Shown piece after piece: positions 4,253-5,278 of a DNA stretch of 17,041 nt (within the stretch, counting starts at the first letter, position 1; each line of letters starts with the position of its first letter). Position numbers and translations under genes: made by a program. The DNA comes from a virus (taxonomy: Duplodnaviria; Heunggongvirae; Uroviricota; Caudoviricetes). The DNA lies in IMG/VR virus record IMGVR_UViG_643348547_000011, one strand, 5' to 3'. A model generated the notes under the pieces. The model was not told the origin of the DNA. It worked only from the letters and a program-made list of their open reading frames with translations, and did not search any database.

Positions 4253-5278
4253 ATGACTAGTACCAATAACATAACAAGAAAAAAAATGGATGGAGTAACA
4301 ATCTTAAGATTTATAGCTGCTTTTTATGTGTTTATTTTTCACATTAACATGAGAGTCCCCGTTAATTTTGGAGAGCTTATTAATAAAACCATTAGCAATG
4401 GCGTCATTGGCATGAGTATTTTCTTCATGCTTTCTGGTTTTGTTTTGACTTATAATTACTATGGTTCCTTGTCAAACAATTACTTCAGGAAGCGAATAGC
4501 AAGAATATTTCCAGCCTATTTATTTTGTGGGCTTTTAACCCTCCCATTTTTGTTATCCAGCGATGCAAACTTTTTAAAAATGATTGCAAGCATATTCTTG
4601 TTTGTTACTGGAATGCAATCATGGATTTATCAGACCTTCGATTTTTGGAATTTTAGCGGTACCTGGTCAATATCAGTGGAATTGTTTTTTTATGCCCTAT
4701 TTCCATTTTTGATAAAAAACATCAACAAAAACAATGTAATTTATGTTTTACTTTTTTCATATTTATCTTCAGCATTATTAATCCCATTATCTGATATAAT
4801 TCAGGGACCTGTAGTTTGGTCCGTATATTACGCAACTCCAATATACAGGTTACCAGAATTTGTGGTGGGCGTCTGTATCGCAATACTTTTTTTAAATGGC
4901 TATCGTGTTAACCATTATACATGGCTATTAAGCATTTTATTATTTCTGTATGCTACCACCCAGCAAAACAATAACTCCATGGGGGTGAACTATCTCACAA
5001 TTCCTGCGATATCAATTATGTTATTGCACCTGGCAAAAATCAACATCAAAAACAATATTGTAAACAGAGCGATCATTTACTTTGGAGATATAAGTTATTC
5101 GTTTTATTTGATGCAATTACCTATATTATATTACCTTGATCATAATAAAAATTCATTTGTTCTTAACTATGGTCTTTTTAGCTGGCTTGTACTTTTTGTT
5201 ATTAATACTGCAATGGCATCATTATCTTATCACTTTCTGGAGAAGAACGATAAAATCAGAAAAATAATCACATCCTAA
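4253..5278 (+). CDS. Acyltransferase family 3 integral membrane protein (OafA/Oac-like O-acyltransferase)
   Basis: 341-aa ORF from ATG 4253-4255 to TAA 5276-5278. Strongly hydrophobic multi-pass protein with acyltransferase-3 hallmarks near the N-terminus (ILRFIAAFYVFIFH, IFFMLSGFVL, RIARIFPAY). Much more AT-rich by eye than its neighbours. Start could instead be Met12 (4286). Confidence 0.75.
   Translation: MTSTNNITRKKMDGVTILRFIAAFYVFIFHINMRVPVNFGELINKTISNGVIGMSIFFMLSGFVLTYNYYGSLSNNYFRKRIARIFPAYLFCGLLTLPFLLSSDANFLKMIASIFLFVTGMQSWIYQTFDFWNFSGTWSISVELFFYALFPFLIKNINKNNVIYVLLFSYLSSALLIPLSDIIQGPVVWSVYYATPIYRLPEFVVGVCIAILFLNGYRVNHYTWLLSILLFLYATTQQNNNSMGVNYLTIPAISIMLLHLAKINIKNNIVNRAIIYFGDISYSFYLMQLPILYYLDHNKNSFVLNYGLFSWLVLFVINTAMASLSYHFLEKNDKIRKIITS

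Follow-up and report, generated by a model that had tools for sequence, protein, structure and literature searches.

Where the tail module of an e14/SfV-like prophage ends, in the slot where related phages carry the inverted half of a switchable tail fibre region, lies an intact, AT-rich gene for a standalone membrane protein of the acyltransferase-3 family (hereafter AT3). We describe this gene and its surroundings in a stretch of 17,041 nucleotides (IMG/VR record IMGVR_UViG_643348547_000011), referred to below as the window. The window is Escherichia coli chromosome, 99.97% identical to strain AR_0013 downstream of ssrA (four differences over 13,080 aligned bases) and 100% identical to it between positions 3800 and 5800. 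Its minus strand holds the distal tail module of the prophage, including a DNA-circularisation protein, Mu gp44/45/46-type baseplate proteins and baseplate J; the host phage is an e14/SfV-like temperate phage with an HK97-type head and a Mu-type contractile tail. AT3 is encoded on the strand opposite to these late genes and is convergent with the tail fibre assembly gene, tfa. An earlier prediction, made from the sequence letters alone, had proposed that the gene could be lysogenic-conversion or superinfection-exclusion cargo of the Oac type, which destroyed an invertible host-range switch when it arrived.

The acyltransferase gene and the fibre genes beside it

The 341-residue product of the gene matches Pfam Acyl_transf_3 (PF01757) with E=2.6e-26 (92.9 bits against a cut-off of 31) over residues 14-316, corresponding to profile positions 3-314 of 326, and PHROG 3333, 'O-acetyltransferase', with E=1.7e-40; with this single Pfam domain in 341 residues, it carries no SGNH domain. 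The low GC content and the opposite orientation noted in the original prediction were borne out: GC is 31.6% in the AT3 gene and 25% in the spacer upstream, as against 46.7% in the invertase remnant beyond it, 54-57.5% in the fibre and baseplate genes and 52-60% in the surrounding prophage. By hand calculation, a stop-free run of 341 codons would arise by chance at the composition of the gene with a probability of about 1e-12.

The motifs that define the family (R/K-X10-H in the first transmembrane helix, RXXR after the third, and V-X-X-F-F-X-(I/V/L)-S-G-(F/W/Y); PMC9833829, PMC9558356) can be followed residue by residue. In an alignment of 60 sequences R19, H30, F57, F58, L60, S61, G62, F63, R81, W138, E143, Y193 and E330 are invariant, and R84, which completes the RXXR motif as R81-I-A-R84, is conserved in at least 90% of the 60 homologues; the third motif reads M54-S-I-F57-F58-M-L60-S61-G62-F63, with methionine and not valine in first position. 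An AlphaFold2 model (pLDDT 95.4, pTM 0.93) has an all-helical membrane fold of about 10 long helices plus short ones. The Protein Data Bank (PDB) holds no AT3 structure, and a sequence search of it with the protein gave no match; Foldseek against the PDB likewise found nothing significant, with only a weak likeness (TM-score about 0.4, probability 0.82-0.87) to HGSNAT and GWT1, distantly related membrane acyltransferases (TmAT relatives). Since an NCBIfam search returned no match either, the protein is an equivalog of neither WecH nor OpgC.

Purifying selection acts on the gene: compared with close (99%) alleles its dN/dS is 0.20-0.26, the comparison with a 69% homologue gives pN 0.17 and pS 0.87, with synonymous sites saturated, and the frame is intact in 64 of 65 carrier genomes. 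Upstream, 44 bp before the start codon, a promoter-like site (TTGATA-18-TATTAT, 4180-4209) matches 10 of 12 consensus positions. Downstream, the hairpin that separates AT3 from tfa has a z-score of -4.9, with none of 200 shuffles equally stable; it lacks a clean U-tract and is likely, by prediction, a bidirectional terminator. Foreign GC, opposite strand, a candidate promoter-like site and a strong hairpin between convergent genes support the view, raised as a possibility in the original prediction, that AT3 is a moron, and the gene is absent from the corresponding interval in e14 and in the related prophage of strain VREC0864. The upstream regions of seven homologues, once aligned, have no conserved promoter or cassette boundary, and the gene therefore seems to move without conserved flanks.

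Beside AT3, the fibre region can be read against e14, in which the order in K-12 is ymfQ, stfP, tfaP, an inverted tfaE plus stfE', and pinE. Positions 6361-8031 of the window are 96% identical to e14 stfP/ymfQ/jayE, so that e14-like identity runs from the baseplate genes into the first ~300 bp of the fibre gene, and the homology ends at the crossover site. Homology to the constant part of the fibre gene ends at the identical point in more than 1,800 E. coli genomes, and this common end is where, in an invertible fibre gene, the constant part is expected to meet the variable one. The 25-bp crossover site has one mismatch to e14 pixL and was matched by none of 200 shuffles; no second crossover site lies anywhere in the window, nor do second Sv' or tfa' genes.

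What is left of the invertase lies on the other side of AT3. In a tblastn search, residues 138-184 of e14 PinE match window 4057-3917 with 77% identity and two in-frame stops, and a weak similarity, also seen in three-frame translations, reaches residue ~129 at about 4085-4098; the remnant is an annotated pseudogene in AR_0013. The last ~50 codons, encoding the DNA-binding helix-turn-helix (HTH) end, remain. The break falls at about 4085-4100, where GC drops, in keeping with the boundary originally proposed for it at about 4105; the loss amounts to ~70% of the gene, including the whole catalytic domain, and not to the 5' half. With one crossover site, no catalytic invertase domain and no alternative Sv'/tfa' genes, the switch is dead.

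A related prophage with an intact segment, the comparison that the original prediction had suggested, is found in VREC0864. There, positions 6001-6859 of the locus (L014) hold the fibre tip and the first half of tfa at 98.6% identity to window 5519-6377, the N-terminal half of tfa being 99.6% nucleotide-identical to the tfa of the intact invertible segment; beyond these come another tfa, convergent with the first, another fibre tip and an intact recombinase of 187 aa (Resolvase plus HTH_7). Compared with VREC0864, the window lacks the 5' two-thirds of the invertase, together with the second crossover site and the inverted half of the segment, and has AT3 and its leader in their place. Both e14 and VREC0864 thus place AT3 in the slot of the inverted half of a Pin-type segment, as had been proposed.

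The tfa gene of VREC0864 (L014 5805-6197) is itself a hybrid, with its N-terminal 66 residues identical to those of the window tfa and its C-terminal half identical to e14 TfaE; the recombination point lies mid-gene, at window 5519. GC of the 3' half of the window tfa is 34.7%, and we considered an AT-rich block that would begin inside tfa; this was rejected, the window tfa being collinear over its full length with the tfa of a P2-like metagenomic prophage (described below) and the VREC0864 gene being the hybrid. Coordinates of all features of the locus are collected in Table 1.

Table 1. Features around the acyltransferase gene, in window coordinates.
Feature	Position	Strand	Remarks
Pin/Gin-family invertase remnant, C-terminal HTH part only	3914-4098	-	tblastn with PinE
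AT-rich upstream spacer, 152 bp, 25% GC	4101-4252	+	with promoter-like site
Standalone AT3 gene, 341 aa, intact; candidate cargo (moron)	4253-5278	+	PF01757
GC-rich perfect hairpin between convergent AT3 and tfa	5280-5305		RNA fold -17 kcal/mol
tfa, tail fibre assembly (chaperone) gene	5320-5715	-	Caudo_TAP E=2.5e-23
Tail fibre, 316 aa	5715-6665	-	
Fibre variable glycine-rich receptor-binding tip (Sv part)	5715-6360	-	Gly_rich_2 PF21722 E=2.2e-10
Fibre constant N-terminal part (StfP-like, Sc)	6361-6665	-	96% identical to e14 stfP
Pin-type crossover (pix-like) site in fibre gene	6364-6388		one base changed, AAACC -> AAATC
ymfQ/Gp48	6669-7253	-	
Baseplate J	7244-8302	-	

Spread of the block and neighbours of related genes

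The block formed by invertase remnant, AT3, tfa and glycine-rich tip was found in 65 of the 5426 complete E. coli genomes, with 96-100% identity. It sits at the right-hand end of one prophage type, which occupies three attachment sites: ssrA (the window strain, AR_0013 and CE10), tRNA-Pro next to yejM (isolate 362, whose prophage looks complete) and att-lambda, where 19A14 carries a complete-looking prophage and E. coli B/BL21/REL606 one that is mostly deleted. AT3 is thus present in complete-looking prophages. Because the block is common to 65 genomes at three attachment sites, the truncation of the invertase is old and has spread with the phage. This bears on the proposal that the arrival of AT3 destroyed the switch: the switch is dead, and causation is not provable for a block of this age, found so widely. 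The end of the deletion at the composition break is no more than suggestive of gain of AT3 and loss of the invertase in one event.

In E. coli B (L011 8062-10582) and 19A14 (L107 9821-12341), a 445-aa protein without Pfam match lies between the invertase remnant and attR, together with a second, different AT3 (381 aa, PF01757 E=9e-31) that is absent from the window; the two may form a further surface-modification module.

Outside E. coli prophages of this type, the same trio of tip, tfa and AT3, in the same order and orientation, is carried by a P2-like prophage from a metagenome (L003), with 76.7% amino acid identity for the tip, 43% over full length for tfa and 68.8% for AT3, which lies there between tfa and the sheath gene. 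The genomic context of eleven homologous protein clusters, from 69% to 39% identity, was looked up individually. In seven of them (69, 58, 54, 45, 43, 43 and 42% identity) a gene for a tail fibre or its chaperone comes directly before the homologue and is convergent with it; the prophages differ in their tails: two P2-like, with AT3 in the slot between the G-like (tfa) and sheath genes, two of a Wedge1/DUF2612-type myovirus, two of lambdoid type (one with the host-specificity protein GpJ, one with a tail-tip fragment only) and one with another baseplate-J tail, a Phytobacter prophage that combines a Gly_rich_2 fibre with AT3. The prophage association expected from the start is therefore general and, because seven of eleven clusters sit just after fibre genes, the clade is best described as recurrent cargo physically tied to receptor-binding genes. 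The 45%-identical homologue, in a metagenomic prophage (L020 720-2165), is directly preceded on the same strand by a gene of the GtrA family (flippase-like), with the convergent tail fibre genes coming after AT3, a neighbourhood that hints at an O-antigen-directed role of the clade.

The remaining four clusters comprise one gene by a phage tube fragment, two chromosomal orphans (Enterobacter and Photobacterium) and one gene in Morganella that adjoins glycosyltransferases, an epimerase and an AT3-SGNH gene in a locus of polysaccharide/lipopolysaccharide (LPS) type. All homologues have 32-35% GC irrespective of the phage that carries them. A tblastn search of a sequenced phage collection with the protein gave matches of at most 29% identity, with Sf6 absent at E<=1e-5, so that there is no cultured phage relative in that collection. 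A pattern scan of genome contigs with the AT3 alignment returned one locus above 40% identity among the matches listed; the patterns are generic AT3 motifs.

Association with serogroup O7 and its explanations

Nearly all carriers of the block share an O antigen. The O7 flippase gene wzx is present in 94 of the 5426 complete genomes, and at least 63 of the 65 AT3 carriers have the O7 O-antigen cluster, where about 1.1 would be expected (Fisher p about 1e-120, clonality ignored). The overlap was obtained by intersecting listed accessions and is a lower bound: TUM10008 and Es_ST80 were unmatched, and two O7 records were outside the listing. The p value overstates the case because many carriers are of the clonal B lineage; against a purely clonal origin stand the three attachment sites and the range of sources (human, poultry, pig, mouse, horse, swan and seawater). 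No gene for an O-acetyltransferase lies in the O7 rfb cluster itself. A 58%-identical allele (P0005 type) occurs in 3 complete E. coli genomes, too few for a serogroup test.

The fibre tip has nearly the same distribution, being found in 68 of the 5426 genomes with three extra carriers: an O7 strain in which the tip is on a different tail type and AT3 is missing; VREC0864, in which the interval from cpsG to gnd is devoid of an O-antigen cluster; and strain 81, with 90.3% identity to the tip. VREC0864 is probably rough: in its genome (L109 17160-20100) gnd follows cpsG directly, with loss of galF, of the entire O-antigen cluster and of the distal colanic-acid genes, and IS3 interrupts ugd. The simplest reading of this distribution would be that the tip recognises the O7 antigen and that AT3 modifies it.

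We favour, as rather probable, an explanation by analogy with characterised enzymes, in which AT3 is lysogenic-conversion cargo that acylates the O antigen, probably O7 and likely the phage's own receptor, and has taken the place of the dead switch. By analogy with characterised AT3 proteins, acetyl-CoA (or another acyl-CoA) would enter the ten-helix pore from the cytoplasm and be held by the conserved arginines R19, R81 and R84; at the periplasmic face, H30 and Y193 would then help to transfer the acyl group to a sugar in a surface glycan. The O7 O antigen is the most likely acceptor, and it probably serves the adjacent glycine-rich tip as receptor as well. Read from a promoter of its own on the opposite strand, AT3 would be made in the lysogen, and the altered O antigen would make it harder for this phage and its relatives to adsorb (lysogenic conversion and superinfection exclusion). 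In the phage itself, AT3 and its AT-rich leader stand in place of the first ~130 invertase codons, the second crossover site and the inverted half of the segment, and because of this replacement the fibre is frozen in one orientation.

Several observations weigh against acylation of O7 by AT3. The data equally allow an O7 specificity of the tip alone, and the association may merely reflect the host range of the phage: because tip and AT3 have nearly the same distribution, it is not assignable to AT3 over the tip. Many of the carriers are, moreover, clonal derivatives of E. coli B, which is rough and has nevertheless kept the AT3 gene intact. In CE10 (O7:K1) the gene is frameshifted by a 1-bp insertion and annotated as two fragments (NC_017646.1 3123342-3124542). 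The 90% protein cluster has one member labelled 'Escherichia coli O5' and some from E. ruysiae, so the restriction to O7 may fail in draft genomes. The promoter call is weak, being based on the consensus only, with 14 such sites in the region where 9.1 are expected. Three of the eleven homologue clusters lie outside prophages; the counter-evidence that the original prediction had named, homologues in LPS or capsule loci without prophage, is marginal, with the one Morganella locus of this type and, elsewhere, the two chromosomal orphans. Finally, we found no literature report of O7 O-acetylation, no biochemical or phenotypic data in the literature on the AT3 protein or a close relative, and nothing on this gene as carried by E. 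coli B or on genes of the family that adjoin tfa; the published O7 structure is not known to have O-acetyl groups.

In CE10 the O7 wzy gene is also annotated as frameshifted (L022 6155-7329); the two frameshifts in this strain could be homopolymer sequencing errors, or they could reflect loss of both O-antigen polymerisation and the modifying enzyme.

Alternatively, AT3 might acylate another envelope glycan (enterobacterial common antigen as WecH does, the LPS core, osmoregulated periplasmic glucans as OpgC does, or colanic acid), the link to O7 then being the host range of the linked tip. AT3-only proteins act on many acceptors (PMC9558356), and such a choice would accommodate the inseparable distribution of tip and AT3, the O7 strain that has the tip alone, the intact gene in rough E. 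coli B and the two homologues that are chromosomal orphans with neither LPS nor phage neighbours. Yet the missing NCBIfam match leaves no WecH or OpgC equivalog, the position by receptor-binding genes recurs in many phages, one homologue adjoins GtrA and the Morganella homologue lies beside glycosyltransferases and an AT3-SGNH gene; and if the target were common to all E. coli, it is difficult to see why the gene should be confined to one serogroup. We hold another glycan to be unlikely. Still less probable, to the point of being improbable, is a gene without function, an AT-rich passenger fixed by deletion of the invertible segment and decaying with a defective prophage. The window prophage is indeed a remnant, its tape-measure gene cut by an IS3-family element and its invertase a pseudogene, and AT3 is frameshifted in CE10; decay is nonetheless at odds with a frame intact in 64 of 65 genomes, with a dN/dS of 0.2-0.26, with a 17% non-synonymous difference from the 69% homologue at saturated synonymous sites, with catalytic motifs that are all invariant and with the occurrence of the gene in complete-looking prophages.

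A further alternative concerns history alone and is compatible with the functional explanation. Tip, tfa and AT3 could be an ancestral cassette from phages that never had an invertible segment, P2-like ones for example, and a module swap would have overwritten the switch. The P2-like prophage with its trio in the same order and orientation fits this origin, as do the Phytobacter prophage that pairs a Gly_rich_2 fibre with AT3 and the end of e14 homology exactly at the crossover site, a known exchange point. Against it, VREC0864 has the tip and the N-terminal half of tfa, at 98.6% identity, inside a working-looking invertible segment, and AT3 also pairs with unrelated fibre types. VREC0864 implies that the tip does occur in invertible segments; the direction of transfer is not readable from it. 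Taken by themselves, the two histories, AT3 landing in the switch or a tip-tfa-AT3 cassette recombining in and overwriting it, fit the data equally, and we regard the ancestral cassette as quite possible, short of probable.

Pushed further, and in a form that we offer only tentatively, the argument would make tip, chaperone and AT3 a portable cassette for recognising and modifying a receptor, passed across unrelated tails, e14/SfV-like, P2-like and others, and O7-specific in E. coli, where it would amount to a so far undescribed system of seroconversion and exclusion for O7; within the e14/SfV lineage the cassette would have displaced the switch, trading a flexible host range for one receptor plus protection of the lysogen. 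If acylation of the O antigen by AT3 is true, an uncharacterised modification would be added to E. coli O7, a serogroup to which O7:K1 strains from neonatal meningitis and the laboratory lineage of E. coli B/BL21 belong, and this could explain serological or phage-susceptibility differences among O7 isolates. The locus would also be a clear case from nature in which a phage exchanged its invertible host-range switch for a receptor-modifying gene. In more practical terms, the position of the AT3 clade after receptor-binding genes offers a rule by which receptor-modifying cargo can be found and the receptor of a phage guessed from its prophage sequence.

Prophage flanks and likeness to known systems

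Past the invertase remnant the window continues with an EcoRII-type endonuclease (1-1209), a Dcm-like C5 methylase (1244-2719) and a LEM-3-like GIY-YIG protein (3029-3853; PHROG 5356, E=2.6e-143). The EcoRII-type pair and the GIY-YIG gene occupy the slot of mcrA in e14, and the same flank in other carriers of the AT3 block holds a DinI pseudogene or the 445-aa protein with the second AT3; downstream of pin, the end of the prophage has the look of a variable slot for defence genes. On the far side of the tail module the tape-measure gene is truncated (11727-12740, without Pfam match, annotated in AR_0013 as a tape measure missing its N terminus) owing to an IS3-family element (orfA 13485-13811, orfB 12598-13488); the prophage in the window is defective. 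AR_0013 has a group II intron at the position equal to window 13079, which the window lacks.

A second serine-invertase fragment (15742-15912, minus strand; PinE residues 38-94, 67% identity) adjoins an AIDA-repeat autotransporter remnant (13817-15463) and a DUF5508/ypjC-like gene (16409-17041), surroundings that resemble the CP4-57 region of K-12 with its pinH pseudogene. We considered this fragment as the missing 5' part of the invertase remnant beside AT3 and rejected it: PinE residues 95-128 are in neither piece, and its neighbours are the AIDA-repeat and ypjC-like genes.

Prophage AT3 O-acetyltransferases, and cargo genes downstream of fibre genes, are already well known, and the locus is no new kind of system; its likenesses are instructive all the same. 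One is to Sf6, in which oac is convergent directly after the tailspike gene, with a terminator between the two and near the prophage end; AT3 has the same position after the fibre genes, with the hairpin as putative terminator. Sf6 Oac is likewise a standalone AT3 membrane protein (333 against 341 aa) with the R-X10-H, FFxxSG and RXXR motifs found in both; it acetylates the O antigen that is the receptor of the phage and blocks superinfection (PMC9558356). The two proteins are nevertheless distant, BLASTP aligning 50 residues only and hhalign giving 22% identity with a probability of 96.7%, and Sf6 is a podovirus with a tailspike and no invertase remnant, whereas the window phage is a myovirus with a fibre. 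AT3 does not, on this comparison, qualify as an Sf6 Oac orthologue, and the label 'Oac-type' of the original prediction is too strong in its strict sense.

The backbone is that of the e14 P-region, with 96% identity over ymfQ, jayE and the constant fibre part and the same crossover sequence in the fibre gene. In the Pin, Gin and Cin segments of e14, Mu and P1 the invertase gene comes after the segment; the window keeps only an invertase remnant there and, unlike these phages, has neither inverted half nor second crossover site nor catalytic domain, so that no inversion is possible. The window phage is not P2-like, and yet two AT3 homologues lie exactly in the moron slot of P2-like phages between G and FI, with 33-35% GC and on the opposite strand; this is the slot in which P2 itself carries Z/fun. 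Lastly, in gtrABC of SfV and others, and in OafB/GtrC family II of BTP1, a prophage membrane enzyme converts the phage's own receptor, much as we propose for AT3. The resemblance is one of role: the window has no gtrA or gtrB, AT3 lies by the fibre genes and not next to int-attP, and OafB is an AT3-SGNH protein whereas AT3 has no SGNH domain.

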